From Minisyncoccota bacterium (GTDB lineage Bacteria > Patescibacteriota > Patescibacteriia > Patescibacteriales > UBA12465), in assembly GCA_021734405.1 (NCBI GenBank), contig JAIPJA010000003.1, forward strand, positions 1-58,454: 58,454 nt of DNA. The letters run 5' to 3'. The notes under the pieces are model-generated. The model had not been told where the DNA came from. It made no database searches and worked only from the letters and a program-made list of their open reading frames with translations. The translations under genes were made by a program, and so were the position numbers. Positions 10,126-48,054 of this stretch are shown in pieces; the first letter of the stretch is position 1, and each line of letters begins with the position of its first letter.

Positions 10126-10431
10126 CTAGGCTAACTCATAAAGCTTAAACTTTAACCTTAAATTATATTGATAACAAATTCTTTCTAAGATATTAGTGCT
10201 AACAGCCACCTCTCCATTTTCTATTCTAGAAATCACTGCCTGGGTAGTATTTATTTTCTCTGCTAGCTGTTTTTGACTTAGCTTCTTTTTCTTTCTAAAA
10301 GCTATAATTTCTGCAGCAATTTGAAATCTTAACAAACTATCACAATAAAGCTCTTTAAACTTATCATCCTTTAACTTATTTTTTAGATCGTTATAAAAAT
10401 TATCTTTTTTATTGTTTTTTTTCTTGTTCAT
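10126..10431 (-). CDS. XRE-family HTH antitoxin (HigA-like)
   Basis: HTH segment LSQKQLAEKINTTQAVISRIENGE. Overlaps the upstream toxin ORF by 23 nt. Confidence 0.75.
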   Translation of the reverse strand: MNKKKNNKKDNFYNDLKNKLKDDKFKELYCDSLLRFQIAAEIIAFRKKKKLSQKQLAEKINTTQAVISRIENGEVAVSTNILERICYQYNLRLKFKLYELA

Positions 10432-10789
10432 ATTTTTTATAATTATTTATAAAACCACTATATCTATTTTCAGCGATTCCCAGCTCTTTAACTGGAGTTT
10501 TTTCTCCCTCTTTCTTTACAAATAAATGTAAAAGTGTCATTTTTTCATCTTTCCAAATAAAATATAATAATCTATATAACTGTGAGGAAAATTTGATTCT
10601 AATTTCTGAAAAATGATAACCTTTAATATTTTTAGTAAACACAGAATTAGTTTTGCCTTGATTTGTAGCTACATGAACAATAATAGCATACAGTCTGGTA
10701 ATAATATTATCATTATCTATATTTCTAATTTCTTCTCTAACTTGTGTGCTTAAATCTTTATTGTTGTAATAATATTCTATTTTTAACAT
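10409..10789 (-). CDS. RelE/HigB superfamily toxin (phage Gp49-like)
   Basis: 126 aa with ...EIRIKFSSQLYRLLYFIWKDEKMTLLHLFVKKEGEKTPVKELGIAENRY, typical of Gp49/HigB-like toxins. The toxin-first gene order also matches. Confidence 0.65.
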   Translation of the reverse strand: MLKIEYYYNNKDLSTQVREEIRNIDNDNIITRLYAIIVHVATNQGKTNSVFTKNIKGYHFSEIRIKFSSQLYRLLYFIWKDEKMTLLHLFVKKEGEKTPVKELGIAENRYSGFINNYKKYEQEKKQ

Positions 10790-25080: not shown

Positions 25081-25836
25081 TTAACTAAAAAGACTGAAAT
25101 ACCAATTAGTTAAAACTTCATGAAAAAGCAAGACTAAAACACTGGCCACAGCTAAAAAAACTCCTAAAGGTAAGCGACTTTGCCACCTCTTTTTACCTAA
25201 AAACATTAAAACTATAGCCACCACAGAGCCAAGCAAATAAGCTATTAAAATAACTAAAAGTAAATGACGTAAATTAACAAAAACTGCTCCTATAAGAAGA
25301 CCTAAATATATATCCCCCTCTCCTATACCCTTCTTCTTAGTAAGTAAATATTGAAACCAGAAAAAAGCAAAAGCTAGGGCTAAACTTAAAACTATTTGCC
25401 ACCAGAAAAAACCTAAAAATAAATTAAAAGCTACTGCTATAAATATAGCTGGAACCACTAAGAGCAAAGATACCAATTGCCAACGAAGATCAAAAACAAA
25501 CACTACTATCATAACTGCTATCACTAACCAATTTCTAGCCAAAGCAATACTTAAAGGTTCTAAATCAGGCAAAAAATAAAAGGCAGCTACAAAAAGCACA
25601 GCTGTTATTGCTTCTACAGCTGGATATTGCCAAGAAATTTTTTTAGCACAATGCCGACAGCTACCTCTTAAAAATATAAAACTGAAAATAGGTATATTGT
25701 CATACCAGGAAATCTGATGACGACAATGAGGGCAATAAGAGCGCCCCCATAAACTTTCTTCTTGAAATAAGCGCCAAATTAAGCAATTTAAAAAACTACC
25801 CACTATTAAACCAAAAATAATTACTAAAAGATACAT
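25081..25836 (-). CDS. pilD: type IV prepilin peptidase (A24 family)
   Basis: N-terminal CPHC...CRHC zinc motif, a polytopic membrane body and GIGEGD catalytic Asp motif. Confidence 0.85.
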   Translation of the reverse strand: MYLLVIIFGLIVGSFLNCLIWRLFQEESLWGRSYCPHCRHQISWYDNIPIFSFIFLRGSCRHCAKKISWQYPAVEAITAVLFVAAFYFLPDLEPLSIALARNWLVIAVMIVVFVFDLRWQLVSLLLVVPAIFIAVAFNLFLGFFWWQIVLSLALAFAFFWFQYLLTKKKGIGEGDIYLGLLIGAVFVNLRHLLLVILIAYLLGSVVAIVLMFLGKKRWQSRLPLGVFLAVASVLVLLFHEVLTNWYFSLFS

Positions 25837-32459: not shown

Positions 32460-33623
32460 TTATTCTAACCAAAAAGAATCAGCGCAATAGGAAAAAACAT
32501 TAGGATAAGCTGGTTGCATAGCTAAGCTCACGTAAGAAATAATATATATTCTTTGCTGTATGTTGTCAGTTAAATAGATATATAAGCCATCTGGAGAAAA
32601 TACTAATTCTCTACTTTCATCAGAGTAATATTGATTTACTGGTAGCTCCTCTAGCTCAAATTCTTTTTCATACCAAGCTTTTATATCCAGACCTTCTACA
32701 TTAGGTTCAACTGATATCTGAAAAAATCCTTCATTAGTTGGGTCAATAAACATAACTGAGCTCTTATCTTCTGTCTCCTGAACTTCAAAGGCTTCAGGGT
32801 ACAACATTGAATAATTATAAACTTCATTACTATAATCTGCTAAATTATAAGCATTTAAAACTTTAGCTACAGAATCTAAACTTCCCTCCCCTAGAGGATT
32901 ATAAAGGTTAGAAAACTCCACAAAATCACTATAGCTATCACCATCAGTATCTACATTTTCACTATCTGTATTTAAAATTGCTTCTTCTAAATCAGTCAGT
33001 CCATCACCATCTAAATCACTAACTACTATAATTGGAGTGCTGGTTGGAACTTCATCTACAGGCTCGGTGCTAGTAGGCGATTCTATATCATTGTCAGTGC
33101 TAGTGGCTAAATCACCAGGTTCAGGGGAAATATCTGTGCTAGTAGGAGCTTCAAGCTCTTCAAGAATAACTTCCTCTTCAACTTCTATTTCTTCTTCAGG
33201 TGTTACATCTTCCAGCTCTTTATTATCAGAAACAATTTCCTTATTATTTTGCTCTATTGGTTTATTTTCTCTAACTATATTTTGACTATCTTGATTACTA
33301 TTATCAGAGTTAAAAACGTAAGCATAAACAAAATAACCTAAAACTGCTAAGACTAAAACTCCCACGGAAATTATAATCAAGCCCACTTTTTTATGAGAGC
33401 CGCCACCAGAAGAAGTCTTAGAACCACCAGAGTCTAAGTCATTGGGGTGCACAGAACTATTAAACTGACCTGACCTAAAACCACTAGGCATACTATGAAT
33501 TTTAAAGCCAGACTCTATATTCTCTGATAATTTTTGCATTGACTTCTCTTTTTCCAAACTAGAAATCTGTCCAATTTTAACTTTCTCTAAATTATTATCA
33601 GTTTGTAAATCTTTTTCCTCCAT
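32460..33623 (-). CDS. TM-anchored protein with an acidic linker, TSP3-like Ca-binding repeats and a C-terminal globular domain
   Basis: TM helix VGLIIISVGVLVLAVLGYFVYAYVF. Repeats DLDGDGLTDLEE and DTDGDSYSDFVE fit DxDxDGxxDxxE. Confidence 0.8.
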   Translation of the reverse strand: MEEKDLQTDNNLEKVKIGQISSLEKEKSMQKLSENIESGFKIHSMPSGFRSGQFNSSVHPNDLDSGGSKTSSGGGSHKKVGLIIISVGVLVLAVLGYFVYAYVFNSDNSNQDSQNIVRENKPIEQNNKEIVSDNKELEDVTPEEEIEVEEEVILEELEAPTSTDISPEPGDLATSTDNDIESPTSTEPVDEVPTSTPIIVVSDLDGDGLTDLEEAILNTDSENVDTDGDSYSDFVEFSNLYNPLGEGSLDSVAKVLNAYNLADYSNEVYNYSMLYPEAFEVQETEDKSSVMFIDPTNEGFFQISVEPNVEGLDIKAWYEKEFELEELPVNQYYSDESRELVFSPDGLYIYLTDNIQQRIYIISYVSLAMQPAYPNVFSYCADSFWLE

Positions 33624-33636
33624 AAATTATTATTAA

Positions 33637-34389
33637 TTAAAGCAAACCATCCCCTAAAGGATTATAACCATTTTTTACTTCTTCACCATCTAAGTAGCTA
33701 TCGCCATCTGAATCATCATTTAAAGGATCAGTGTTATATATATTTACTTCATCACCATCATTTAACCCATCACCGTCAGTGTCAGGGTTATTAGGGTTGG
33801 TATTGTATAAGCCTAACTCCTGAGCAGTAGAAAGACCGTCACTATCAGGATCTTGATTAGCAAACTCTGGTTCCGGTTCTTCTATTGGCGCTTCCGGCTC
33901 TATTACTACTGGCTCTTCATCTTCTATCTCTGGAACTTCTGGCTCTTCTTCGACTATAACTTCTTCAGGCTCTTCCTCTTCTACTTCTATACTTGGCTCT
34001 ATGTCATTATTGTTATCTTCTTCTAAATCTGGATTTTTATTCTCTAAGTTATTGTTAGCAACTTGACCAGCAGGATTATTTTCTACAACTTCATCAGCTT
34101 TTAATAGATTGTTATACATATAATAAACACCAAAACCAAGCACGGCTACTATCACCACAATAATAACTCCCATTCTTAGCTTTTTAGCTCCAGAACTTAC
34201 AGGTTCCCTGTAAGGGCGATATTTATCAGTAGAAAAAGAATTTTCCTTACTTTTCATTCTCTCTAATTGTTCTTTAGGTATACTTGGAGGAATGGGTTGA
34301 CCACTATCTTCAAACTTATCAGTTTCTTGAAAGATATCCTCTGTATTATTACCTCCTTCTTGAGATTTTTTCTCTAAATCATCAAACAT
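33637..34389 (-). CDS. TM-anchored protein with an E/P-rich linker and C-terminal TSP3-like Ca-binding repeats
   Basis: TM helix MGVIIVVIVAVLGFGVYYMY. Repeats DPDSDGLSTAQE, DTDGDGLNDGDE and DSDGDSYLDGEE. Confidence 0.8.
   Translation of the reverse strand: MFDDLEKKSQEGGNNTEDIFQETDKFEDSGQPIPPSIPKEQLERMKSKENSFSTDKYRPYREPVSSGAKKLRMGVIIVVIVAVLGFGVYYMYNNLLKADEVVENNPAGQVANNNLENKNPDLEEDNNNDIEPSIEVEEEEPEEVIVEEEPEVPEIEDEEPVVIEPEAPIEEPEPEFANQDPDSDGLSTAQELGLYNTNPNNPDTDGDGLNDGDEVNIYNTDPLNDDSDGDSYLDGEEVKNGYNPLGDGLL
33767..33809. repeat. DNA-level repeat copy A (encodes YNTNPNNPDTDGDG)
   Basis: CCATCACCGTCAGTGTCAGGGTTATTAGGGTTGGTATTGTATA is roughly 85% identical to 34524-34566. Confidence 0.7.
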
Positions 34390-34474
34390 AAAATACTATT
34401 TAATAATTATTGCTTATTATATCATTTAATTTACAGCTTAACAAAAAACATCTAAAAAATTAAAATGAATTAAT

Positions 34475-35314
34475 TTAACTTAAAGGGTCATAACCATTTT
34501 CTACCTCTTCTCCGTCTAAATAGCCATCACCATCAGTGTCAGGATTGTTAGGATTAGTATTATATATTTCATTTTCTTCCTTGTCGGTCAAGCCATCGCC
34601 ATCGGAGTCTAAATTTTCATTATCATTTATAAATATACCTATAGCTGAATTGCATTCTTGTTGCATTTCACCAGAAATAGATGAACAATCTTTATTTTTA
34701 ACCGCTAAATCAAAAATAATACTAGAAACACATTGATCTTTTGCTTTTCCTGATAGCGCATCACAAACAACTATATCTTCATAATCATTTTCATCAACAA
34801 AATATCCTATACAACTAGCTAAATAATATTCACTTTTTATATTTTGACACTGAGACAGTTCACCTAAGCTAATAGCCTTAAGTCTTATAACCTTATCTTT
34901 ACATTCTGAAACCCTATCCCTGCCAACAACATTATCACAAATTTCTTCATTTTCTGTATCCCTAGCAATTCTCTCTAAGCATAAGTCGGCACTAAAACTA
35001 TCCTCCATTTGCTGACAATAACTAATATCTTGTGTATCTTTAGCCTGATCATATAAATTATTTATTTTTTCAATCTTAAGTTGCTTTTCACTTTTTTCTG
35101 GTTGCGTATTGTCTTTTTGTATATCTGTGCTAGAAGCTGTATTTTCTTGTTTTTCTGATTCTTTTGAAACATCTTCACCTGATATATCATTATTACTTAC
35201 AGAAGAATTGACATCTTTATTATTGGAAAAAATGTTTTTATTAAAAATAAAAAACAAAGTCAAAGCTACTATAATTAATACAATAGAAATTAAAATGATT
35301 CTTTTTTTGTTCAT
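34475..35314 (-). CDS. N-terminally anchored protein with a paired-Cys helical region and C-terminal TSP3-like repeats
   Basis: Signal anchor RIILISIVLIIVALTLFFIF. Repeats DSDGDGLTDKEE and DTDGDGYLDGEE. Confidence 0.8.
   Translation of the reverse strand: MNKKRIILISIVLIIVALTLFFIFNKNIFSNNKDVNSSVSNNDISGEDVSKESEKQENTASSTDIQKDNTQPEKSEKQLKIEKINNLYDQAKDTQDISYCQQMEDSFSADLCLERIARDTENEEICDNVVGRDRVSECKDKVIRLKAISLGELSQCQNIKSEYYLASCIGYFVDENDYEDIVVCDALSGKAKDQCVSSIIFDLAVKNKDCSSISGEMQQECNSAIGIFINDNENLDSDGDGLTDKEENEIYNTNPNNPDTDGDGYLDGEEVENGYDPLS
34524..34566. repeat. DNA-level repeat copy B (encodes YNTNPNNPDTDGDG)
   Basis: CCATCACCATCAGTGTCAGGATTGTTAGGATTAGTATTATATA matches 33767-33809. Confidence 0.7.
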
Positions 35315-35324
35315 ATATAAATTA

Positions 35325-38300
35325 TTATTCTGCTTGACAACTTTCTAAAATTTGCATTCTTAAATTAGAAAAATTTATAGTCCCATTACCATTAGTAAAA
35401 CTAGCTGTAAAAGGCACGTAACTTGGAGAGCATTGCGCGCTTTCCGGATCACAAGAAACATTATTTAAAAATATTTGTTGATTTAAATAGTTAGACTCAC
35501 CTTCTTCTAATAAAATAGGATCTAACAACTCTCCATTTATCTCTATTTCCAACTCATTATCTGACGGCTCCCTAGATATATCTTCAACTATATTATCATA
35601 AGCACTGGAAACCCCTGTAGTTGATAAAAATGTATAATTAGCGCCAACGCAACCGCTTGTAATATCGCAACCAGCACAATCATACGGAATATCATCATTA
35701 GACCAAAAACACATCCTCTGTAACAAATTATTTTTAGGGTCGTCAGAAAAATAAATAGAATATACAAAAGCTTCATCGTTTATGTAACTAGTGCTTGTGC
35801 GAATAGTATTTTTTACATAAGCCCAAGGATCATCCCCAGTAGGATTGCCATCACTTAATAATATATAAAATTTAAAGGGATCATCATTTTCAGCACTTAA
35901 CATCTCATGAGCAGCCATTAAAGCATTTTTAGTTTCAGTTGCACTTCCTATATCATCATAAAACGATATAATGTTTACTAAATTAGAATAATCGCCATTA
36001 TTATGCAAGTCTATTATATCATCAGAATTTACAACATCACCAAAATCAACCAGGCCCACCCTTATATTGTTACTTTCATCAGCTATTTGCTTTAAATCAT
36101 GCATTACACTACCAGGTAATGCTTCATTCACATCAACATCTGTAGTTCCTATTAAAGATTGTCTCACATCATCTATACGTTCATTCATACTTCCCGAAAC
36201 ATCAGTAATAAAAACAATAGAAGTAGGCTCTATCGTCAACTCAACCTCAGTTAAGATATCAATAAAAACTGAGTCTGGTTTAAAGCTAACTGCCTCAGGC
36301 ATAGAAATATAAGCGGTCTCCCCTGGCCCGCCTTGCCATGCTAAAGTAATATTTTCTTGATAATCTAATGAACCTTCTTGAGTAGTAAAATAAACAGGAG
36401 TGGTAGTTTCAGGATATTGAAAATCCCACTTACAAAAATTACAACAATTATTATTTACCCCAAAATCACATTCTTCCATGTAGTCATCTTGTAACAAAGA
36501 ATCTCCGCACATACCACCGGTATACGTACAAGTTCCTGCTTGTACAGGCTTAGAGGTAGAACTATTAGTAGTGCAAGCATAAGGCTTTTTTTCTTCATAA
36601 CTAACCTGGGGGTCACAACCTCCATCACAAGCAGTCTCAGCAAGTCCATCGCATTCCTCATAGCCATCACCAAAAGGTCCGCCAGCCAACTCTCCGTTAG
36701 GAAAATTAAAATAACCATCTCCGCAAAAAGAATTAGCCCTAAATTCAAAAGAACTCTCGCTAGAAACTCCTGAAGTATTTATAGCCTCAACAGTTATTTT
36801 AAACTTTGCATAATCATCCAAACTACTTACTTGATAATTTGGTGGCTCTCCAAAATGAGTATTATAATCTAAAAATCCAGACAAAAAACTGCTAGAAGAA
36901 TTGAAATTAAAATTAAGTGGTAAATTTTTTGGCGGATTTAACGTATAAGGCACATAGTTAGTTCCGCTTAAATATTCTGTACTAAAAGCTATATCAGCAA
37001 CTTCCTCAGGATCTTCTAAGGTTATAAAACACTCAAACTTTTCCTCTCCAGCCCTAATCTCATCAGGACAATTAAAATTAAAAATTGGGTTACCATTTAT
37101 AATATTTATTAAAAAAGTCTTGTTAGCAGAGTTACCTGATGCGTCTTCAACATTTAAAGTAAAAGATATAGTATCTGGCTCAGGATCACTTAAGGCAGCT
37201 TGTACGTCCGCACTATCCAACAAACCATTAATATTTAAACGATATTGGTTACTGGCCACATAAACCATTCCAACTGTTAGCCCATTCCCTATGTTTAGAT
37301 CGCCAACACTAGCATTACCAATGTTTGGAGTAAACCCTGTCGGATAATTGACAATTAAATTCCAATTATTTGTATTAGTTAAATTATTAAAATTATTATC
37401 AAATAAATAAACATTATAATCTAAGGGTGTAACTCCGTCATAATAATAATCAATATTTTGAGCTTGTATTTGTGGAGATTCATCTCCTATAGTAATAGTT
37501 AAGGTTTCTTCTAAATCATCAGTTGAAGGCAGATTATCAGCAACTGAAAAATTAAAAATATATTGTCCTACTGCACCAGCTTTAGGGTTTTGAATAAGTC
37601 TTTTATTGGGATTATTAGTAGGAACTAGTTTTAAAATTGGATCTGGGTCAGGATCTGTCCAGCCCTCATTAGTAAAATCAGTTTCCGTTAAATTAATATT
37701 CCAATTTGATAAAATCCTGCCATCTGGATTATTAATTTCTATAACGCCATTAAAGGGTAACTGGCTTTGTCCGTTTAAATTATATGACTTTATAGTTATT
37801 GGATCTTTAACAAAACTTAAACCATAACCAACCATGCCCTCGCAATTAGCATTACTAATAGATATACCTTCTGTGTCATCAAATTCAAACTTACTTGCTG
37901 TTTCTAAGGTTGCGCAAAGATTATATTCAGAACCATAATTTTCACTACGATAAGCGTAAACAAAACTGTTTAAAGGTAAGTTGATTTCATTACTTAAATC
38001 ATTATCATAAAATTTTAATTTTTCTTCGTCCCAACAAGTATCCAGATTATAATTATAGACTCCAGTTTCATCAATGCAGGGCCCAAAAATATTAATAGGA
38101 TCTATCATTTTAGAACTAAACCCTAAAGCAGAGCCTAAAACATTATTCCAGCTAGGCCAAGTAGAAAAAGTGGTATTTTGTATATAACTACCAGCCGATA
38201 AAACTGGATAAACTCCAAATTGATTTTTGTATCTTTCCAAATAAGCAGTAAAGTCTGTTAATCTACCTACCCTAATAACGTCTCTGGTAATTCTAGCTTT

Positions 38301-38903
38301 AACACTTGAACAGAAAAAGCCTTTAGTGCAATCTGAGTCTATTAAACAATTTTTAGTATTAGGTAAATTAGCATCACTCTCTTCTATTACACATTTATTA
38401 TTTTGAAACTCTAAACCAACAACTCCTTCGTTGCCACAAACAAAACCCGCGGGACAATCAGAATCCTCACGACAAACGAGAGTGGATAAGGAGCATTTAC
38501 CTGGGTCATTATTAATATTATAATTAAACTTCCAATGAGAAATTATTTGCCCTAAAACATCCATAGTAGAATTATTTGATTCTTGGTTATAGGAAATTAA
38601 ATAAATATTAGTGTAAATAATATCTTTACTAGGGTCAAGTTTGTCTAGTATGTTAGCTGCTGCCACATAAACTGTTCTTCCATCTCTTATAGCTTCATAT
38701 CCGTCCACAATTAAGCTCTGAGGTGAACCAGAAAAGCCCTGCATTCTATACCAAGTTTCAATGCCATAGTGATTGGGGTTAGGCAAAACCCTAATAGCAA
38801 TAGCATCGGAGACTAAACTGTCTTCAGCTGAAGAAAAATTAAAAGCAAAAAATATAAGCAAAAAACTTAAAAGCAAAATTAATTTATTAAAATTAGTTTT
38901 CAT
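35325..38903 (-). CDS. giant secreted multidomain protein (1192 aa): Cys knots, pilin-head-like motif, Ig/cadherin-like repeats, CGDG...ECD cysteine-rich repeats, vWA-MIDAS domain
   Basis: Signal peptide ending ...FNFSSA. ARITRDVIRVGRLTDFTAYLERYKNQFGVYP at aa 203-233. FCGDGYF...YEECDG and MCGDSLLQDDYMEECD. vWA motifs IVFITDVSGSM ... GSATET ... LLSDG. Confidence 0.85.
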   Translation of the reverse strand: MKTNFNKLILLLSFLLIFFAFNFSSAEDSLVSDAIAIRVLPNPNHYGIETWYRMQGFSGSPQSLIVDGYEAIRDGRTVYVAAANILDKLDPSKDIIYTNIYLISYNQESNNSTMDVLGQIISHWKFNYNINNDPGKCSLSTLVCREDSDCPAGFVCGNEGVVGLEFQNNKCVIEESDANLPNTKNCLIDSDCTKGFFCSSVKARITRDVIRVGRLTDFTAYLERYKNQFGVYPVLSAGSYIQNTTFSTWPSWNNVLGSALGFSSKMIDPINIFGPCIDETGVYNYNLDTCWDEEKLKFYDNDLSNEINLPLNSFVYAYRSENYGSEYNLCATLETASKFEFDDTEGISISNANCEGMVGYGLSFVKDPITIKSYNLNGQSQLPFNGVIEINNPDGRILSNWNINLTETDFTNEGWTDPDPDPILKLVPTNNPNKRLIQNPKAGAVGQYIFNFSVADNLPSTDDLEETLTITIGDESPQIQAQNIDYYYDGVTPLDYNVYLFDNNFNNLTNTNNWNLIVNYPTGFTPNIGNASVGDLNIGNGLTVGMVYVASNQYRLNINGLLDSADVQAALSDPEPDTISFTLNVEDASGNSANKTFLINIINGNPIFNFNCPDEIRAGEEKFECFITLEDPEEVADIAFSTEYLSGTNYVPYTLNPPKNLPLNFNFNSSSSFLSGFLDYNTHFGEPPNYQVSSLDDYAKFKITVEAINTSGVSSESSFEFRANSFCGDGYFNFPNGELAGGPFGDGYEECDGLAETACDGGCDPQVSYEEKKPYACTTNSSTSKPVQAGTCTYTGGMCGDSLLQDDYMEECDFGVNNNCCNFCKWDFQYPETTTPVYFTTQEGSLDYQENITLAWQGGPGETAYISMPEAVSFKPDSVFIDILTEVELTIEPTSIVFITDVSGSMNERIDDVRQSLIGTTDVDVNEALPGSVMHDLKQIADESNNIRVGLVDFGDVVNSDDIIDLHNNGDYSNLVNIISFYDDIGSATETKNALMAAHEMLSAENDDPFKFYILLSDGNPTGDDPWAYVKNTIRTSTSYINDEAFVYSIYFSDDPKNNLLQRMCFWSNDDIPYDCAGCDITSGCVGANYTFLSTTGVSSAYDNIVEDISREPSDNELEIEINGELLDPILLEEGESNYLNQQIFLNNVSCDPESAQCSPSYVPFTASFTNGNGTINFSNLRMQILESCQAE

Positions 38904-38958: not shown

Positions 38959-39666
38959 TTATAAAGCTTGATCATTTATCTGACAAGCTCCATACTGACA
39001 ACTTTCATTACAATACTTTTTACCTAATAAATTACCTTCATTACAATATATAAAACTATCAACTTTAGCGTTTGGATCACACTTTTCATTACCGTTTACA
39101 AGACCATCTCCGCAAGACTCTATCGGCAAACAATCAATTTCCCAACCATAACAATCATTTAAACAAGATTTTACTCCTTTATAAGCTCCACTAAAACAAA
39201 GCTGATAGCCACCATCGCACACCTCTAATTCTGCTTGTTCCCATAAACCGTTACCACAAGTTCCTGCCAAATCAGGGTCTAAATTAATCACCAATTCTTC
39301 ACTATAATTACTTTCATTTCCATAAGCGTCAACAGCGCTTAAAACAAAATAATGTATATAACTATTAAAATTAGTGGTAGATAGAGCTAAGCTGGTAACT
39401 TTACCATTAGTTTTTATACTTTCCCCGTATACACCAGAATTAACTCCATGATAAAGAGTATAATAAGAGACGTCATCTATAACCTCATCCCACTTAAAAA
39501 TAATTTCATCTCCCATGGCAGCTAATACTGCCTGTAAAGATAAATTTTTAAATCCAGAATTAACTAAATTATCTCTATTTACGTTATTATGTTTAAATAA
39601 AAAAATACTTGCAGAAACTAAAAATATAATAGCTATAGTAAAAATAAATAAAAAACTTTTTTTCAT
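38959..39666 (-). CDS. secreted or anchored FN3-like domain plus CGxG...C(D) cysteine-rich repeat protein
   Basis: N-terminal hydrophobic anchor, an FN3-like beta segment (KWDEV...YYTLYHG...SAVDAYGNES), then CGNGLWEQAELEVCDGG and CGDGLVNGNEKCDPN. Confidence 0.8.
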   Translation of the reverse strand: MKKSFLFIFTIAIIFLVSASIFLFKHNNVNRDNLVNSGFKNLSLQAVLAAMGDEIIFKWDEVIDDVSYYTLYHGVNSGVYGESIKTNGKVTSLALSTTNFNSYIHYFVLSAVDAYGNESNYSEELVINLDPDLAGTCGNGLWEQAELEVCDGGYQLCFSGAYKGVKSCLNDCYGWEIDCLPIESCGDGLVNGNEKCDPNAKVDSFIYCNEGNLLGKKYCNESCQYGACQINDQAL

Positions 39667-39673
39667 ATATAGA

Positions 39674-42600
39674 CTAATAAATAATTACACCAAGAGGAGT
39701 AGCTGGAGCGGTAGCGTCACTAGGCTCGCCAATAAGTTGATTAGAAAGCTGGCTTTCTACATTATTTTCATTAACAGATGAAATTCTAAAATAATAAGGA
39801 TTATTATTTTGTAAATCATGCAAAACTCTTTGACAATGATAATTGCCGCCAATAGTTATACAAGCTACTGGGTTAGGCACAATATCAGGATCTAAAGGAT
39901 CGCTTGGATAAACTTCAAAATTAGAAAAATTACTATCTTGAGCTTTTCTATAATACACTTTATATCTATTAGCCATATTTACTGGGGATTGCCAATATAG
40001 TTTTAAACTACCACCAGTTTCTAAATCTTCTACTTGAGCAAATTGAACTTGTGATGGTTTTTCAGCTCTAAAAAAATAATAATCTTTCAAAACTCCAGGG
40101 ACACAAGTGTTGTTGCTAAAATCTCCAAGACAATCTGCTGGAGCTTCACAATAATTACCAGTAATACTACAAGTATTTGCTTGACAGGTGTTGCTAACTG
40201 GGCAAGCAGGAGGCCCACAATATTCTCCAGTTATACTACAAATATTACTCAAGCCTCTTATTCTTACGTCTTCCAAATCTTCAGATAAAGCTGGTAAGTC
40301 ATCAAAAGTTCCTGGCTCTCCAGCGTCACGACAATAATATAGTGTATAATTAAAATTTTTACAGAAATCAGGATCATTATTAAAATCACAATTAACATCA
40401 GCATCAGACCAAGGCATCCAAGCATGAGTTATTGGATTAGGTGAAGGCCAAGGGTTTTGGCAAGCAAAAACATACAACGGTACTGTGTGTGACATATCAT
40501 CAGATGGTATAACATTATTAATTTCATCAAAATCTATAGTAGCAGTAATTTTAGTGTTACCTTCTTGTAAATCAAGTGTCACCTTAACTAAACGACTGTT
40601 ATCAGGACAATTATTAGGCTGACTTATATTAGCAATATTTATATCCTCTACAGACCAATCCCAACTCCAGTCATAGACATTAGCGATAGGTTGTAACACT
40701 TGACCACTAATACTATAAGCATTTACATTGTAAGACTTATCTCTGTCATAAAAATTATCATAAGTATCTGAATTAAAATCATTATCATCCTCAAAAATGT
40801 TATCTTGAGTATTTTGGAATAAATAATCATCTGGCCTTACTCTAATATAATTAACTTCACATAAACCATCATTATTACCCTGTTCAGATAAAGTTTTAAA
40901 TGTCCAAATATATGAATTAACAAAAGTAGTGCTATTAAACATAATATCTCCACCTGGTATATAATCATTGGTAAGTGGATCCTCTAAATAACCTTCACCA
41001 TTTAAACCAATTCCTTCAACGCTTAAAACTCCGCTAGAACTATTTAAATCCTTGTCACCTTTAACTATTCCATAATACACAGCATTAGAAGCCAAAACAT
41101 TGTTGGGTATAAAAACTAAGACTGAATTTCCATTATCAATTTTTCTAGAAACACTTCCTGGCACCTGACAATAAATATAATTTTCAGGCTGAGGGATTGG
41201 ATGAGCTGAAAAAGCTGTGTCTGTTTTTCTTAAACCTAAAGAGCTTAAAGTTGAATTAAAAATTCTAGCAACAGGTCTAGTAATTTTTTGCCACCATTTT
41301 TCTTTATAATTATAATCCAAGTTAACTAAAAAAGTTCCTGAAGGACAAACCTTATTTTGGTCCAACTCTTGCAATAAGATAAAGTTATTAAAGAAACTAC
41401 TCGCCTTCATGTTTTGATTAAAGGGAACTTCTAATACAGCATTTCTACAAACATTTGACTCGCCATGACTTGGCTTAACTTGATCTTCCACAACTTGAGG
41501 TCTAGCATGACAACAAGTATCAAGGCCACAACCAATATTACTACTATCACCACACTCACTATCATTACTACAACCACAACAAAGACCTCTATTTTCAGTA
41601 GTGCAATTACCTTTGTTAGCTACACAATTCAAGTTATCTCCTATATTCTTACAAACATCATCTTCTGGGTCAGCTTTAGGATCGCAACAACAAACACCGC
41701 AATCACCACCAACCACAGCCTGAGCTAAATCGCCCCTATTATCTAAGCAATTGAAAGGGTTAGAGCAAAGACTAAGATCACAAGCGCCACTATAGTCATC
41801 TACACAAGCATTACCAAAACCACCTGGTGGTCCACTGCCTTCACAATTATCATTACAGTCTGTCCAAGTTTCATACTCTCCAGAAGTTAAAGGATTGGAA
41901 GGATTAGTGCAAGCTCCAGTTACATCATTACAATCATAGTAATCACAATAACCCAAATTAGGCTCTGAAGTAATTCTAGCGCCAGCTGAGCAACTAGCAT
42001 CATTCTCGTCCCAGCAACAACTCCCATCATCTATACACTCATTCTCATCGCCATAAGTTGAACACTGACCACAAGCTTCTTCACAAGTTTCAAAAGTTCT
42101 ATAATCACCAGTTTCCTCAGGTCCAGAGCATGATCCTGACGCGTCATCACAATCATAATAAGAACAATATCCATTTGAATCTACTCCACTTCCTCCTCTG
42201 CAAATATCTTCTGCTTTATCCCAACAACAAGTAGTTTCATGTTCTGTACAACTATCTTCAGATAATTTAGCACAATCTAAACAAGCGCCATTCGGATAAG
42301 GAGGATTAGTAATATCACAATATTTTCCAGAAGTATTTAAACAATTACAGGCAGCGTCTCTTACATTAGGATCATTAGAAATATTACAACCTGAACAAAC
42401 ACCAAAACCTTCATCATCAGTAGCGTCATCATCAGAGCCACAAGTGCCAGTGCAATCTAAGGTATCACAACAGTCTTGACCTTGTAGTTCTACACGACAA
42501 CAACAATCACAAGAAGCATTATCTTCATATATACACTTATCCTCTGCGCCGTTATTAGTACAACTAGAACCAGAAGGACAAAGTTTATCTGATAAACAAA

Positions 42601-45178
42601 TACCTTGTCCGCCTCCATCATCAAAACAATTAAAATTTACACTGCATAGCTCACAAGTGCTGTTCTCATCTACACAAATTCCATTACCTTTATTAGTCCA
42701 ACCATCAGGACAAGAAGTATTAACTTGCATTTGCCAGTGACCATTATTATTACAAACCCTGTCTGCATAAAAAGTCTGCACAGGGTTAGGAGCTTCTCCT
42801 AAAGTATAGGCTACATTTGTTTGTGGCAAATCACAGACTCCTCCATTTTGTTGACACTTATCTTTATCAACTAAATATGTGCAATTTTCTCCACAACCTA
42901 AAACATCAGAACAATCAAGATTACAATCTCCTACAATCTGCTGTTCTCCGCCTTCATAAGGAGAACATTGCCCTGGAGCATTAGGACAGAAAGTTGATTC
43001 CTGGCAAGCGCCTAAAGCTCTGGCCATACCTAAACAACTGTCATAAGTATTAATGTTTTCCCAAACAGTATTAAAATTCCATTGAAAAACTGAACTAGGA
43101 ATATCAGAAAAACAATTTTCATACATATCATTAGCTGGTCCCTCCTCTACGCAACGCCCACTTTCTGAAGAACTAGAAGGACAACAAACATCAGCTCCGC
43201 AATCAGCATTTTTTTCACATTCTCCTACCTCAAAATTTAAACTATTGCCAGTCTCGTTATTAGTTAAATTTTCTACTTTTACTGGACCACTAACTACCTC
43301 TGGATCAGTGTCAGGGACAATAGTACTTAATTTTTGAGCATCAATCTCAGTTTCTATTTCTGCTTGATTAGAATTAGTAGTATTGCCAGAAGCTGTAAAA
43401 ATAATTTCTGCATTCTCCCCAGTAGTGCCAAAATACTCACCCCACAGAGACACTGAACTATTGTGAGGGCCTAATTTAGGACTAATTTTACATAAACTTG
43501 GTTTTAAATTTAGATCATTATCAACCTCAAACTGTTGTGAGCTTTGAATTTCCCAGGAACCAATTTCCATGTTTATATATTCAAAGCCATCTACAACATT
43601 ATTTGGCACTTTAACTATCACCATATTATCACTCCAAACTGAATCAGCGCATACATCAGGAAAATCATAGCTAGCTTCAATATCGCCAAAATAAACACTA
43701 CTAGATCCTTGGCTATTACCAAAACCTGAACCATAAATAGTAACATACTGACCAACCGGACCCTCAGTATCAAAAAAACTAGAAATATATGGACCTAAGT
43801 CTTCTTCTGTTTCTTTGACAAAATCTAAAAAATTACTTTTTACATCTATGCCGGCAAAAACTTTAGTAGCAAAAGAACTAGTTTCCCCATTAGAAATATT
43901 AGGGAGATCGGTGCTACCGACCTTACCGTCGGGATCTATAAATACATTATTAAAACCTGAAACATTGGTATTATAATTACCAAAATAAGCTCTAGCGTTA
44001 TTTAAATTTAAACCAGAATAATTTATAGTCGCTAAAGCTTGAGCACTGTCAGGAGTTAAACTACAAAGACCTGGTCTAGTAATAGTGTTTTTAACAAAAT
44101 CTTCTATAACAGGACCCAAGGTATTATTAGTGTTATCGCTTTTACCGTCTTCATTTGTGACTGTAATTACTCCTGAATTAGCAAATTCAGGTACAGCTAC
44201 TATTATAAGGTTATTGTTAGAAACTCCAGCACAGTCTGCGTTTAAACTAGCCGGATCAACACCGTCAACTCCTCCATTAAACGTTACAGTAGAACTGGAA
44301 AAGTTGTGTCCATGAATACTAATTAAATTAGAGGTGGCTCCATTAGGAGTAATATCATCGCAAACACCACTCTCACAATCAATGCCTGTTTTACAAGGCG
44401 TATTTTCATCATCTTTACAAAAGCCCCCAAAAGGACTAATAGCGGTTATAACCGGTGAACCCTGGCAAGTACAATCAGCGTCAGCATCACAAGTTAAATA
44501 CTCTCCACACATATTATCACTAGCATCACAAACATCTGGTGTACTTAAATCACCATCACAAGGATCGCCAATGTTGCCGGTCTGCTCACAAAAACAATCG
44601 GTATTACAGAAATAGTTAGGAGCACAATATGTATCATCTTGGTCACAGACAGGAGTTAAAGAGTTGCCATCACAACTAGTAACTGGAGTGGTGCAATTTG
44701 AAGGATTAGTAATATCCCAAGTACAGTCATCCTGGCAGGTTTTTTCACCACCACAACCAAAGGTCTGTGTAGTTCCTTCGATACAGCAAGTAGTGGTCGT
44801 AGTTCCTACCCCCGTAGCATTTAAAAGTTGATTTATAACAAAAGTGGCTATTCCCCAAGAAGCTAAAATAATAGCTAAACCAATAACGGCGTTTATAAGT
44901 ATCCTTTTAGCTTTTCTAACATTTTCCTCATCACCATCAGCAGTCATCCATCTAAAACCAGCATAAATAATTAAAACGACTGCTAAAAGCCCTAGAATTG
45001 ACATTAAAATGTTAATAACTCTAGCAGCTACTTCTCTTGGATCATCATCACCTAAAGCAATATTATTACTAACATAATTAGTACCCACATCTAAAGCTAA
45101 AACACTGTTAGTGGCAAAGCCTAAGATTAAAACTGAAAAAAGTATTATAAGGAAAATAGTAAATCTTTTTTTAAACAC
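39674..45178 (-). CDS. giant surface protein (1834 aa): VirB2/TrbC-like two-TM pilin module fused to IPT/TIG repeats, a hyper-Cys-rich core, an Ig-like region and a C-terminal FN3
   Basis: Signal peptide ending ...NSVLA, two TM helices flanking WMTADGDEENVRKAKR, and about 120 Cys by my count. IPT-like segments at aa 240-650 and FN3 at aa 1705-1820. Confidence 0.9.
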   Translation of the reverse strand: MFKKRFTIFLIILFSVLILGFATNSVLALDVGTNYVSNNIALGDDDPREVAARVINILMSILGLLAVVLIIYAGFRWMTADGDEENVRKAKRILINAVIGLAIILASWGIATFVINQLLNATGVGTTTTTCCIEGTTQTFGCGGEKTCQDDCTWDITNPSNCTTPVTSCDGNSLTPVCDQDDTYCAPNYFCNTDCFCEQTGNIGDPCDGDLSTPDVCDASDNMCGEYLTCDADADCTCQGSPVITAISPFGGFCKDDENTPCKTGIDCESGVCDDITPNGATSNLISIHGHNFSSSTVTFNGGVDGVDPASLNADCAGVSNNNLIIVAVPEFANSGVITVTNEDGKSDNTNNTLGPVIEDFVKNTITRPGLCSLTPDSAQALATINYSGLNLNNARAYFGNYNTNVSGFNNVFIDPDGKVGSTDLPNISNGETSSFATKVFAGIDVKSNFLDFVKETEEDLGPYISSFFDTEGPVGQYVTIYGSGFGNSQGSSSVYFGDIEASYDFPDVCADSVWSDNMVIVKVPNNVVDGFEYINMEIGSWEIQSSQQFEVDNDLNLKPSLCKISPKLGPHNSSVSLWGEYFGTTGENAEIIFTASGNTTNSNQAEIETEIDAQKLSTIVPDTDPEVVSGPVKVENLTNNETGNSLNFEVGECEKNADCGADVCCPSSSSESGRCVEEGPANDMYENCFSDIPSSVFQWNFNTVWENINTYDSCLGMARALGACQESTFCPNAPGQCSPYEGGEQQIVGDCNLDCSDVLGCGENCTYLVDKDKCQQNGGVCDLPQTNVAYTLGEAPNPVQTFYADRVCNNNGHWQMQVNTSCPDGWTNKGNGICVDENSTCELCSVNFNCFDDGGGQGICLSDKLCPSGSSCTNNGAEDKCIYEDNASCDCCCRVELQGQDCCDTLDCTGTCGSDDDATDDEGFGVCSGCNISNDPNVRDAACNCLNTSGKYCDITNPPYPNGACLDCAKLSEDSCTEHETTCCWDKAEDICRGGSGVDSNGYCSYYDCDDASGSCSGPEETGDYRTFETCEEACGQCSTYGDENECIDDGSCCWDENDASCSAGARITSEPNLGYCDYYDCNDVTGACTNPSNPLTSGEYETWTDCNDNCEGSGPPGGFGNACVDDYSGACDLSLCSNPFNCLDNRGDLAQAVVGGDCGVCCCDPKADPEDDVCKNIGDNLNCVANKGNCTTENRGLCCGCSNDSECGDSSNIGCGLDTCCHARPQVVEDQVKPSHGESNVCRNAVLEVPFNQNMKASSFFNNFILLQELDQNKVCPSGTFLVNLDYNYKEKWWQKITRPVARIFNSTLSSLGLRKTDTAFSAHPIPQPENYIYCQVPGSVSRKIDNGNSVLVFIPNNVLASNAVYYGIVKGDKDLNSSSGVLSVEGIGLNGEGYLEDPLTNDYIPGGDIMFNSTTFVNSYIWTFKTLSEQGNNDGLCEVNYIRVRPDDYLFQNTQDNIFEDDNDFNSDTYDNFYDRDKSYNVNAYSISGQVLQPIANVYDWSWDWSVEDINIANISQPNNCPDNSRLVKVTLDLQEGNTKITATIDFDEINNVIPSDDMSHTVPLYVFACQNPWPSPNPITHAWMPWSDADVNCDFNNDPDFCKNFNYTLYYCRDAGEPGTFDDLPALSEDLEDVRIRGLSNICSITGEYCGPPACPVSNTCQANTCSITGNYCEAPADCLGDFSNNTCVPGVLKDYYFFRAEKPSQVQFAQVEDLETGGSLKLYWQSPVNMANRYKVYYRKAQDSNFSNFEVYPSDPLDPDIVPNPVACITIGGNYHCQRVLHDLQNNNPYYFRISSVNENNVESQLSNQLIGEPSDATAPATPLGVIIY
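41840..42259 (-). repeat. tandem duplication of a 65-75-aa CCWD cysteine module inside the 1834-aa protein
   Basis: Copy 1 is aa 974-1038: C..H/ETTCCWDKAEDIC...GYCSYYDCDDASGSC...ETCEEAC. Copy 2 is aa 1039-1113: C...GSCCWDENDASC...GYCDYYDCNDVTGAC...TDCNDNC. Confidence 0.75.
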
Positions 45179-45227
45179 AAGCGTATGGTTAAATATTTTA
45201 AATTTTTATTTTTATCTTACTAAACAA

Positions 45228-47873
45228 TTAATTACAAGTAGCACTATTGGTAGGAACATTATTACAACAAGTAGGAAGACCACTAGTAGCTTCACAGCCT
45301 AGACTAGCGCTAGGTTTGTAACAATTTTGATAAATATTTTTAACTCCAGAACCGGCTTCAGCTGTATGAGCCATAGAATCAGCAAATAAAGAATGGTTGA
45401 TATATACATGCGTCTGGTCAACTCCATCTAAAGGTGTGTCAGTATCTATATCCTCAGCATTTATCCAATAACCTAAAGGATAAGGAGCTGAACCCCAAAG
45501 ATTAACTCTTCTGTGAGTAAAGCTATCATTACCTGACTGTATAATTGTGCTACCTGTTTTTAAAGTACTTTTCATCATTAAACTATCAAATTCTATCTTA
45601 ACTGGAGAAGCTAAATTAACATTATCGCCATTTACATCAGGCTCAATTAAATTAATTATTGGTGGTTCTAAAGCAATATAGTCACTGATATAAAAAGACC
45701 AAGTAAAGCTATCACCTTTACTAACATCTTCTGGGGTATTTTCTGAGTAATAACTAACAGGACCCTCAGCCTTGTTATTTCTGTTACCATCAAAAGAATT
45801 AAAAGCTAAATCAACTATGCCAGAACTAACATCAATGGGTGCAGCTGGATAATTTTCTAAAGCATCATTTTGACAAACACTAACAGCCGGACTACAAGTT
45901 AAATAAGGATCTAAACCTGAACAATCATCATCAATAGCACAAGAATTTAAAATCGCCGCTGTAATTTTTACCTTTAAGTTAGACTTGGCAGGCAGACAAT
46001 AAATAGTTTCTCCACAGCCATTAACTCCACAAATATTATCAGAGACAAATTCTAAAGTAGAAAATTGATTAGAAAGCACAAATTTACCAGCTAATTCATT
46101 GCCAACACATTCTCCCCCGTCGCTACAATTATAGGAAAGACACTCTTTATCTTCTGTACAAGCTTCTTCATCCACCTTATCACCTTCAGCACTAATAATT
46201 TTAACTGTATTAGCTACATCTTCAGCCCTGCCTGATACCATGGCTGGGTTTATAGGTTCATTAAAATTAACTTGTATAACTGAATTTCTAGGCTGATCTT
46301 TTGCATCATTTTTAATATAATTAATTTGGCTATTAGCTCCGCCTGTCATTGGGGTTAAAGAAATAGCACTACTGTTAGAAGTATTTAAAATAATATTATT
46401 TCCACCCGAACCAACTGAAGAAGCAGTTAATTCAACTGTATTGCCGTCAAGGGTAGCTATTATATTAGGGTTATTATTTAAAGCTTCTAAAATATTATCA
46501 GCTTGCTCATCATTGTCAGCGCCTTTTTCAATTTTAGTTGCCCCAGAACTATTAGCAAAAGAGTAAACAATATCTCCAACTCTCAAGGTGTCAGCAAAAA
46601 TTTCAAGATTTACAATCACTTCCCATAAATTACCGACCTCTGGATTAGCATCAAAAGTTAAAGAAAAATAATTAGGAAAATTAACAGTATTACCATTTAT
46701 ATTAGCAATGGTAATTAAAGTAGTAGTCCCCACGCCTTCAAATAACTGGGCTTTAGTGGGATTAAGTACAAAAACGGAAAATTCTTCAAGTTGCTGATGA
46801 TAATTAGGACTAATTGTAGCAGAATCAATATCTACATCACCAACTACAGTGGTAGTGCTAGCCATATTCATACTAGCAGGCACATATACCTTTAATTGGC
46901 TAAAGTCATTAACAGTAATTAAACCCTCAGCTGCCACAGCTGTAGAAGAAGCAACTTCATCTCTTAAATTATCAGCTCCAGGGAAAACTCCTCCTACCTC
47001 TACTTGAGGAGGCATTAAATCTAAAATAGTACCAACTTGAAAATCCCATTGTAAATAATCTGTACTACAAGTAGTAAATACCCCCTTGCCATCGCTTAAC
47101 TTATTAATATCATTAGTTAAATAAACCGTATACCAAATTTTTTCTGAACTAGAGCCTAATAAATTATCAGGTTTAAGAACAAAATCCATACCTGGACCAT
47201 CTAATGGATTAGCATCAATAATTTTTACATTTTCTAAACTTTGGTCAGGCTCACTGGACTTATATATCTTAATATTATCTGTATTAATATAATCTCCCTG
47301 ATTGCAATAAGTTGCGTCAGCATTACTATCAAGACACATATCCTCTAACATAACCGGCTCCTTAAAACTAACTAATATTGAAGTATTTCTAGGTACATCT
47401 TTTTGTCCAGGAGCGGGGTAAACAGATTCAACTGAACAAGCCCCTAAAGCTCCCAAGCCTAAATTAACATTATTGTTATTGTTGTTATTATTACTATTGC
47501 CAGCGCCAGTAGCGTCTAAAAGGCTGTTTAATATAAAGGTGGTTATACCAAAAGAAGCTAAAATTATTAAAAGCCCTATGACTCCATTAGTTAAAGTCTT
47601 TTTAGCTTTAGAAACTTTTTCTTCACTGCCACCACTGGTCATCCAAAGAAAACCAGCATAGAGAATGATAACTACTGCTATTAAGCCTAAAAGTCCCAAA
47701 GCTATTTGAATAATTCTGGCCACTACTACTCTAGGATCATTATTGCCTAATTCTAAATTATCATTTAACTGATTTAAACCAACATCTACAGCTAAGGTTG
47801 GATTAGGTAAAATAAAAAAAGCCAGGCCAAGAAAAACAAGAGATATTATAAAAATAAATAGTTTCTTTCTCAT
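45228..47873 (-). CDS. large surface protein (881 aa): paralogous VirB2/TrbC-like two-TM pilin module, poly-Asn linker, SbsA/Big_5-like Ig domains, Cys-rich C-terminal third
   Basis: The N-terminal 125 aa are about 60% identical to those of the 1834-aa protein. Ig-domain starts VYPAPGQKDVPRNTSILVSFKEPV and QPRNSVIQVNFNEPINP. Confidence 0.9.
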   Translation of the reverse strand: MRKKLFIFIISLVFLGLAFFILPNPTLAVDVGLNQLNDNLELGNNDPRVVVARIIQIALGLLGLIAVVIILYAGFLWMTSGGSEEKVSKAKKTLTNGVIGLLIILASFGITTFILNSLLDATGAGNSNNNNNNNNVNLGLGALGACSVESVYPAPGQKDVPRNTSILVSFKEPVMLEDMCLDSNADATYCNQGDYINTDNIKIYKSSEPDQSLENVKIIDANPLDGPGMDFVLKPDNLLGSSSEKIWYTVYLTNDINKLSDGKGVFTTCSTDYLQWDFQVGTILDLMPPQVEVGGVFPGADNLRDEVASSTAVAAEGLITVNDFSQLKVYVPASMNMASTTTVVGDVDIDSATISPNYHQQLEEFSVFVLNPTKAQLFEGVGTTTLITIANINGNTVNFPNYFSLTFDANPEVGNLWEVIVNLEIFADTLRVGDIVYSFANSSGATKIEKGADNDEQADNILEALNNNPNIIATLDGNTVELTASSVGSGGNNIILNTSNSSAISLTPMTGGANSQINYIKNDAKDQPRNSVIQVNFNEPINPAMVSGRAEDVANTVKIISAEGDKVDEEACTEDKECLSYNCSDGGECVGNELAGKFVLSNQFSTLEFVSDNICGVNGCGETIYCLPAKSNLKVKITAAILNSCAIDDDCSGLDPYLTCSPAVSVCQNDALENYPAAPIDVSSGIVDLAFNSFDGNRNNKAEGPVSYYSENTPEDVSKGDSFTWSFYISDYIALEPPIINLIEPDVNGDNVNLASPVKIEFDSLMMKSTLKTGSTIIQSGNDSFTHRRVNLWGSAPYPLGYWINAEDIDTDTPLDGVDQTHVYINHSLFADSMAHTAEAGSGVKNIYQNCYKPSASLGCEATSGLPTCCNNVPTNSATCN

Positions 47874-47953: not shown

Positions 47954-48054
47954 AAACTAAATAAGCTTTATTTTATAAAAATATAATTATATAATTAATT
48001 ATAGCATAAAAAGAAGCTAAGCCAAATACTTTATTGGTATTTAATAAAGCTAAT

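Follow-up and report, generated by a model that had tools for sequence, protein, structure and literature searches.

VirB2-like pilins were not expected in the Patescibacteria, because monoderm bacteria were once thought to lack conjugative pili. A census found them in 1,948 assemblies and describes arrays of 2-11 genes, in tandem or one gene apart, with a mean identity of 25% and a maximum of 54% (PMC12102498); the arrays are near virB4 in 1,135 of the 1,948 assemblies (PMC12102498), and are also often near the replication origin. Pilin arrays and the type IV secretion system (T4SS) are essential for epibiotic growth (PMC10633639, Wang et al. 2023; PMC12857230), and in structure clusters specific to freshwater, PF18895 (T4SS_pilin) is reported to be the dominant Pfam domain. 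Here we describe two neighboring genes, A and B, on the minus strand of a 58,454-nt stretch of DNA from a Minisyncoccota bacterium (contig JAIPJA010000003.1 of assembly GCA_021734405.1; the window, in what follows), each of which begins with a PF18895 module and continues into a giant extracellular domain (Table 1). On balance we lean to the view that A and B are Sec-exported surface proteins of a Falkowbacteria-like Patescibacterium, in which the VirB2-type hairpin is a specific assembly module and immunoglobulin (Ig)-like rods are displayed.

The A-B pair resembles the described arrays in its Pfam family, its phylum and its layout of a signal peptide followed by a hairpin. The two module genes also lie side by side, with 49 nt between them, and at 54% identity their modules reach the highest value given for arrays. 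The pair differs from the described Patescibacteria pilins, which are small (113-150 amino acids, aa, in the closest relatives that we found), in that its modules head proteins of 881 and 1834 aa and in that the genes lie beside relA and hisS and never near virB4. We found no description of pilin-ectodomain fusions, of the A-B cassette or of proteins with many hairpins in papers on the Patescibacteria T4SS, of which our coverage is incomplete.

An earlier note on this DNA, made from the sequence alone, had proposed that the 881-aa and 1834-aa proteins have paralogous N-terminal modules. Indeed, the first 130 aa of A and B share 54% identity and 73% positives (BLASTP, E 2e-42). The remaining 756 aa of A and 1709 aa of B have no significant similarity to each other (best E 0.18), and we rejected paralogy of the ectodomains on this result. 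The layout that the note had read from the sequence, with a hydrophilic stretch after the signal peptide and a charged loop between two transmembrane (TM) segments, is likewise found by hydropathy and in AlphaFold2 (AF2) models. In order, the proteins have a signal peptide, an acidic N-terminal tail, a DPR motif, a hydrophobic helix 1 (~aa 47-78), a charged loop (WMT..G.EE.V.KAK) and a hydrophobic helix 2 (~aa 84-122), and the module runs into a linker of low complexity (GNSN8 for A, T5 for B). The AF2 hairpin has helices at aa 47-78 and 84-122 in A and at aa 47-79 and 84-122 in B (predicted local distance difference test score, pLDDT, ~80-90 in B). A hidden Markov model built from both modules found no third copy in the six frames of the window.

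By profile search the module is a member of PF18895. The isolated modules score 58.2 (B) and 40.8 bits (A), both above the gathering score of 26.6 bits, and all 38 of 38 aligned relatives match the family. Reversed sequences, which keep both composition and hydrophobic periodicity, lost the matches to PF18895 and to PF04956 (TrbC/VirB2), with a background of ~18 bits at most; we thus rejected a spurious match due to TM composition. The scores against PF04956 are 25.8 (B) and 22.9 bits (A), with E values of 1e-5 to 1e-4, slightly below the gathering score of 27.9 bits, such that neither module is formally a member of that family; 10 of the 38 relatives match it at E≤1e-3. Similarly, A and B reach 33-36 bits against the NCBIfam family NF045849, under its 40-bit cutoff.

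Homology to VirB2 is supported by comparison of profiles. With hhalign, the module profile aligned to a profile of six proteins annotated as VirB2/TrbC pilins, encoded on Ti plasmids and on other MPF_T plasmids, with 91.1% probability (E 1e-6) over 58 columns that span both helices, and with an inter-helix loop ~7 residues longer in the module; the VirB2 profile is thin, since it holds 6 sequences and the plasmid VirB2 set reachable by BLAST is entirely from Alphaproteobacteria. The kinship to T4SS_pilin and VirB2/TrbC proteins that the note had proposed is therefore upheld, with TrbC slightly under its cutoff. The best sequence match of the module profile in the PDB is also VirB2, from the A. 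tumefaciens T-pilus (8cue/8fai), in which the DP...G...WM motif is aligned, although this match is not significant (E 0.94). A Foldseek search of the hairpin model against the PDB returned nothing at E<1.8; the two-helix query still carried the signal peptide and is a poor query for Foldseek, and because a bare helical hairpin is uninformative as a query, we do not count this null result against homology.

VirB2-type pilins sit in the membrane with the N-terminus out, the loop in and the C-terminus out. A and B resemble VirB2, TrbC and TraA (PF04956) in their homologous hairpin, the DP...G...WM motif, a cleaved signal peptide, a basic inter-helix loop and two termini on the outside, where processing and topology are predicted for A and B. 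They differ from these pilins in scoring below the PF04956 cutoff, in their longer loop and in the position of their genes outside a virB operon; moreover, where the tail of VirB2, TrbC and TraA is short and is left free, cyclised or trimmed, A and B have a giant C-terminal ectodomain. A further mark of the conjugative pilins is that they polymerise, together with phospholipid, into an extracellular pilus. The Mbov_0395-family pilin-like protein of a Mycoplasma integrative and conjugative element (ICE), the subject of NF045849, likewise has a VirB2-like hairpin of the monoderm type; unlike members of that family, which are small and ICE-encoded, A and B are chromosomal, fused and off mobile elements.

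The predicted topology of A and B fits that of the VirB2-type pilins. Each N-terminus has three hydrophobic segments; the mature N-terminal tail is acidic (net ~-3 to -4), and the loop holds four Lys or Arg residues. The modules have no Cys, and the ectodomains have 20 (A) and 123 (B), many of which are invariant. Because the modules are free of Cys and the ectodomains rich in it, and because the tail is acidic and the loop basic, we infer an orientation with both termini outside the cell. Ala28, at position -1 of the predicted signal-peptide cleavage site, is nearly invariant in the alignment of 53 A-family sequences.

The fused hairpins are close to stand-alone pilins. They share 50-62% identity with them, comparable to the identity among the stand-alone pilins themselves, and they keep all family-invariant residues. 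The small stand-alone size (~110-150 aa) is typical of PF18895 but does not define it, and A and B exceed it; the junction of the fusion is the position at which the 113-150-aa stand-alone pilins end. The closest stand-alone pilin, P0010, belongs to a six-gene tandem PF18895 array (L087, L088, 9579-12177) that lies a few kb from dnaN, dnaA, rpmH, rnpA and yidC, in agreement with the origin-proximal pilin arrays of the literature.

Beyond the junction, the claim that the module is fused to large extracellular domains is substantiated, and these are chains of Ig-like domains. Pfam identifies Big_5 in A, and TIG, Big_5 and fn3 in B. In the full-length AF2 model of A (pLDDT 85.2), the hairpin leads through a disordered linker (aa 121-135) to an ectodomain that is confidently modelled as all-beta, and for which Foldseek returned only matches to Ig-like chains (such as Chlamydomonas FMG1B, E. 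coli alpha-2-macroglobulin, CEA, cadherins and CopC/Big_5-like domains). An enzymatic or ligand-specific function of the ectodomains was considered, and none could be assigned from the Foldseek search with the A model or from PDB sequence searches with the A and B ectodomains. In their long Ig-like stalks, the presence of a VWA protein in the cluster and a likely role in cell-cell contact, A and B resemble Gram-positive surface and pilus-tip adhesins (LPXTG proteins with Ig-like or VWA domains; PrgB of pCF10). They differ from the LPXTG adhesins in lacking a C-terminal sorting signal, and anchoring would be N-terminal, through the pilin hairpin. No LPXTG-like motif occurs in A, and the only one in B, LPQTN, is internal; the two proteins end in ...SATCN and ...GVIIY.

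The linker between hairpin and ectodomain is 15-21 residues long and rich in G, N, S, T and P in all 53 A-family members, and shorter in B; its length and sequence vary within the family, and only its G/N/S/T composition is shared. A disordered, low-complexity segment placed exactly at the C-terminus of the stand-alone pilins would suit a precursor that is cleaved in the linker, to release a free pilin (for a pilus or a T4SS) and an ectodomain that is either soluble or attached on its own, in analogy to RP4 TrbC, which is trimmed at its C-terminus. Proteins with many hairpins, joined by regular Cys-containing spacers, resemble polyproteins and would also suit such processing. However, the linkers have no conserved cleavage motif and differ in length and sequence, the cassette encodes no dedicated protease, and for a genome of ~1 Mb, an 1,800-aa precursor would be an expensive source of a 120-aa pilin; we consider this explanation very improbable.

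We used the module in an exhaustive HMMER search of 1.84 billion representative proteins, in which 35,287 representatives bear the module at E≤1e-3 and 6,849 at E≤1e-10. Among the best 150 matches, 83 have a single module, almost always at the N-terminus, and 58 of these 83 exceed 500 aa, while 24 exceed 2,000 aa and the longest has 4,410 aa. Proteins with a module and an ectodomain range from 170 to 4410 aa, and their ectodomains are very different. A itself has more than 150 full-length cluster representatives; among the 120 listed, nearly all are 850-1000 aa long, align over nearly their full length at 36-66% identity and have both PF18895 and Big_5. In the databases these homologues carry automatic names, ‘pilin’ or ‘Ig-like domain-containing protein’, and are assigned to Parcubacteria, Patescibacteria and Falkowbacteria. 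The pilin-ectodomain fusion is thus common in databases and not exceptional, contrary to the rarity that the earlier note had implied, and the view of such modules as normally small, stand-alone proteins does not hold among the closest single-module representatives. A word-indexed search with the module recovered stand-alone pilins alone (113-150 aa, up to 62% identity).

The other 67 of the best 150 matches have 2-17 tandem modules in one polypeptide, at ~100-120 aa per unit. Examples among representatives P0178-P0323 are P0181 (1775 aa), P0178 (1147 aa) and P0185 (245 aa); P0181 has 17 hairpins with short spacers, most of which contain a Cys. From their sequences, such proteins could be covalently linked pilin oligomers or polyproteins.

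The A-B pair recurs as a conserved cassette in dozens of species. We examined four loci identified by exact protein match and 80 from GTDB species representatives. A gene for an A protein (~850-1000 aa) is directly followed by a module-headed, B-type gene in ~73 loci, beside relA, hisS and lepB, and 63 complete B orthologues, of 1518-2639 aa, lie directly downstream of A. The four loci with called genes have the same surroundings as the window, with signal peptidase I (lepB), histidyl-tRNA synthetase (hisS) and, in some, S21 upstream, and a divergent RelA/SpoT gene; TSP3_bac genes lie downstream of the pair in L001, L005 and L006. In seven loci (L019, L045, L046, L054, L056, L061 and L072), A is followed by an ORF of ~350 aa instead of B. 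The A-B family is placed mostly in Candidatus Falkowbacteria (Parcubacteria group), GTDB class ABY1, according to the NCBI taxonomy. Complete chromosomes of this group, such as CP066698.1 and OW818634.1 (L028, L049), also bear the cassette. Many Patescibacteria-type contigs (L007, L010, L012 and others) are titled ‘uncultured Gammaproteobacteria bacterium’, and L079 is titled ‘Candidatus Nanoarchaeia archaeon’; these record titles are probably taxonomic mislabels.

The hairpin is the most conserved region of both families. In the A family, mean pairwise identity is 0.585 for the hairpin and drops to 0.37-0.48 in the ectodomain, 0.32 in the linker and 0.24 in the signal peptide; in the B family it is 0.59 for the hairpin and 0.38-0.47 elsewhere. 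The polar loop and Gly/Ala positions are invariant, and are common to the free pilins. In addition, the hairpins of A and B co-vary within genomes. Hairpins of A and B from the same genome share a mean identity of 0.67, compared to 0.57 (A-A), 0.54 (B-B) and 0.54 (A-B) between genomes, and the paralogous hairpin of the same genome is closer than an orthologue in 88% of comparisons. In a neighbor-joining tree the A and B hairpins are not reciprocally monophyletic, and 16 same-genome pairs are sisters. If composition driven by GC content (I/V/L/A swaps) were the sole cause of this likeness, the excess would not be expected at polar columns; since it holds there as well (0.64 versus 0.49), we rejected this explanation. 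A search for recent gene conversion revealed no long identical DNA tracts between A and B hairpins among 16 usable pairs with crude registration (maximum 25 nt, and 13 nt in the window). Such a pattern points to hairpin sequences that were homogenised or that co-evolved; in its simplest mechanistic reading, the two hairpins would touch or would have in common a partner specific to the genome.

We read the hairpin as an assembly module rather than a passive anchor because it is the most conserved region and because the A and B hairpins co-vary. The opposite reading is that a two-TM tether was recruited from a pilin gene with no assembly role and no link to a T4SS, and that the ectodomains function on their own, in adhesion or as a coat that resembles an S-layer (the SbsA-type Ig domain is Big_5). 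The housekeeping chromosomal context, far from T4SS genes, would agree with a mere tether, as would the use of one module at the head of such different ectodomains; moreover, the A family is near-universal and conserved in length in one lineage, as an envelope structural protein would be. A passive two-TM tether, however, is expected to conserve hydrophobicity and not sequence, whereas no part of the ectodomain is as conserved as the hairpin in either family, and the hairpin has invariant polar and Gly/Ala positions that free pilins share, and the co-variation within genomes also argues against it. We consider a purely passive anchor quite unlikely.

In the reading we favor, A and B would be exported by the Sec pathway and cleaved by signal peptidase after Ala28, and the hairpin would insert with both termini outside, such that the basic ...G.EE.V.KAK... 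loop lies on the cytoplasmic face. The flexible G/N/S/T linker would follow helix 2 at the point at which stand-alone pilins end, and would carry the disulfide-rich Ig-like rod (Big_5, TIG, fn3) outside the cell. The hairpin would not be passive, but would be a sequence-specific module by which A and B pair or oligomerise, possibly together with the free VirB2-like pilins of the genome. With the products of genes C-G, which include VWA and TSP3 proteins and would be co-transcribed, A and B would form a structure for host contact or of the envelope; their role may thus be adhesive or structural.

Several points weigh against this reading. First, the topology and the cleavage of the signal peptide are predictions. 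Second, no sequence relatives of the A and B ectodomains were found in the PDB, and the Foldseek matches are generic Ig chains. Third, the pairing of A and B cannot be obligatory, because A occurs without an adjacent B in the seven loci named above. Fourth, the putative operon structure is drawn from short gaps and a pattern-level promoter. Finally, the similarity of same-genome hairpins could stem from old gene conversion and not from physical interaction.

According to Table S1 of Quinonero-Coronel et al. 2025 (PMC12102498), four A-bearing genomes are VirB4-positive (GW2011_GWF2_43_32, RIFOXYA2_FULL_47_19, CG1_02_41_21 and GWC2_42_12); B adjoins A in three of the four, and in CG1_02_41_21 the contig ends soon after A. 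Two of these genomes are listed in Table S3 with VirB4 and TrsD, type IV coupling proteins (T4CPs) and VirB2-like genes that are far from virB4, all marked ‘No’ for proximity. Within 10 kb of the cassette, we found no VirB4, VirB3, VirB6 or VirB8 in L001, L003, L005 or L006. In the window, VirB3, B4, B6 and B8 are absent, and the sole T4SS-related gene is a distant T4CP-like ATPase. The earlier statement that T4SS core genes are missing from the window is correct for VirB4, B6 and B8-10, but this VirD4/TrwB-like ATPase is present at 13153-14949.

A rival reading is that of pilus-borne adhesins, in which the VirB4-type T4SS of the genome would draw the hairpins of A and B out of the membrane and build them into a VirB2-like pilus that consists largely of free pilins. 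The fused proteins would stand at the tip, in place of the missing VirB5 or PrgB adhesins, or sparsely along the shaft, with their ectodomains projecting towards the host. The close identity of fused and free hairpins, their retained invariant residues and the constraint on the hairpin speak for this reading, as do the four VirB4-positive genomes, three of which have B beside A. The geometry permits a C-terminal fusion, because both termini of the F-pilus pilin are outside and its loop faces the lumen (PMC5018250), and the ectodomain, already outside the cell, would need no extra translocation. A pilus is extended at its base, beneath a pentamer of VirB5 at the tip (PMC12857230). No adhesin of the PrgB type has been detected among Patescibacteria, and S. 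epibionticum cannot do without its pilin arrays (PMC12102498, PMC10633639). The cassette, however, has housekeeping neighbors and is never beside virB4, virB3 or virB6 in the window or the examined loci, and a T4SS pilus has so far not been observed in any Patescibacterium. Furthermore, proteins with 2-17 covalently linked hairpins suggest roles for the module that are resident in the membrane.

Occupancy is a further constraint on such a pilus. An 87-Å pilus offers ~660-720 Å² of surface per subunit, an estimate that uses generally known rise values, and full occupancy by ectodomains of 750-1700 aa is implausible; thus, only sparse or tip incorporation would be feasible. Overall, we regard pilus-borne adhesins as unlikely. 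We hold the same reserve for the bolder form of this proposal, that the hairpin is a portable ‘pilus-loading’ module that mounts giant adhesins on a T4SS-derived filament, with A and B as a heteromeric tip or decoration complex that replaces VirB5 or PrgB: it is possible, although improbable. If it were true, A and B would be the first chimera of a conjugative-type (VirB2) pilin and an adhesin, giving reach towards the host, and the essential T4SS and pilin arrays of Patescibacteria would be tied directly to host attachment.

Proteins like A and B are abundant in databases under automatic names, and the small Patescibacteria pilins and their arrays are already known. A large share of the closest relatives of the module are N-terminal modules of giant Ig-rich surface proteins and not small pilins, which recasts this pilin family as a general device for surface assembly or anchoring. 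Consequently, a census that counts PF18895 matches as ‘pilins’ pools stand-alone pilins, giant fusions and poly-hairpin proteins; Table S3 of the published VirB2 census has no length column (PMC12102498). Hypotheses on host attachment by ultra-small epibionts follow from this view, and under our favored reading of A and B as assembled surface proteins, the pair may show how a host-contact surface is built.

A and B head a run of seven co-directional genes for surface or secreted proteins, A to G (47873 down to 32460), with gaps of 7-85 nt, between which no convincing terminator was found at the level of sequence patterns (Table 1). Gene C has a counterpart of 229 aa in L003. A protein of another organism, P0239 (4410 aa), begins with the same pilin module and has both a B-like TIG region (E 3.7e-22) and a region homologous to the N-terminal part of D (E 6e-24); this union of B-like and D-like regions in one polypeptide hints, by the Rosetta-stone argument, at a joint action of B and D.

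Table 1. Features of the window (feature, position, strand, description)
Gene A	45228..47873	(-)	ATG start, 881 aa; signal peptide, T4SS_pilin hairpin, G/N/S linker and all-beta Ig-like ectodomain with 20 Cys
A signal peptide, aa 1-28	47790..47873	(-)	Predicted Sec type; putative cleavage after ...PTLA/VD; hydrophobic from aa 1
A hairpin, VirB2-type, aa 46-122	47508..47738	(-)	DPR motif, helix 1, WMTSGGSEEKVSKAKK loop, helix 2; PF18895 40.8 bits
A linker, aa 123-145	47439..47507	(-)	Low-complexity, flexible, GAGNSN8VNLGL...; pLDDT <50 at aa 121-135
A extracellular domain, aa 146-881	45231..47438	(-)	Beta-sandwich chain (Big_5/Ig-like); invariant Cys, Gly, His and Asn in C-terminal part
Gene B	39674..45178	(-)	GTG start, 1834 aa; signal peptide, T4SS_pilin hairpin, T5 linker and Cys-rich ectodomain (123 Cys) with TIG, Big_5 and fn3
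B hairpin, VirB2-type, aa 46-122	44813..45043	(-)	PF18895 58.2 bits, TrbC 25.8 bits
Gene C	38959..39666	(-)	235 aa, N-terminally anchored; fn3-like region and weak match to a Cys-rich repeat; 7 nt downstream of B
Gene D	35325..38903	(-)	1192 aa, secreted, Cys-rich; He_PIG and VWA domain with metal ion-dependent adhesion site (MIDAS) (Pfam)
Genes E, F, G	32460..35314	(-)	279, 250 and 387 aa; TSP3_bac calcium-binding repeats in E and F, no assignment for G; co-directional, short gaps
Promoter-like site TTGGCT-16-TG-TATAAT	47998..48025	(-)	In the 160-nt AT-rich gap between A and divergent relA/spoT; 10/12 consensus matches; pattern match only
VirD4/TrwB-like T4CP ATPase	13153..14949	(-)	~30 kb away; PF10412 44 bits (cutoff 20.5); zinc ribbon (TIGR04272)
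A24 peptidase, Wzy_C and GT2 genes	25081..25836, 26659..28902	(-)	Type IV prepilin peptidase, O-antigen-ligase-like TPR protein, glycosyltransferase
Serine recombinase gene	783..1760	(+)	Resolvase and Recombinase domains
Toxin and antitoxin genes	10126..10789	(-)	Gp49/HigB-like toxin gene overlapping a HTH (HigA-like) antitoxin gene

The T4CP-like ATPase, with its Walker A motif at aa 36, is free of TM segments and appears soluble, and its zinc ribbon (CxxC-x17-CxxC) lies at aa 451-484. Judged from sequence, it is a possible partner of A and B; T4CP homologues are reported to be near-universal in Patescibacteria and usually far from virB4. Elsewhere in the window, a gene for a type IV prepilin peptidase (A24) adjoins ftsA and ftsZ, and there are genes for a Wzy_C (O-antigen-ligase-like) TPR protein and for a glycosyltransferase of family GT2; all of them belong to a separate system, of type IV pili or of glycosylation. 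The serine recombinase and toxin-antitoxin genes are possible remnants of mobile elements.

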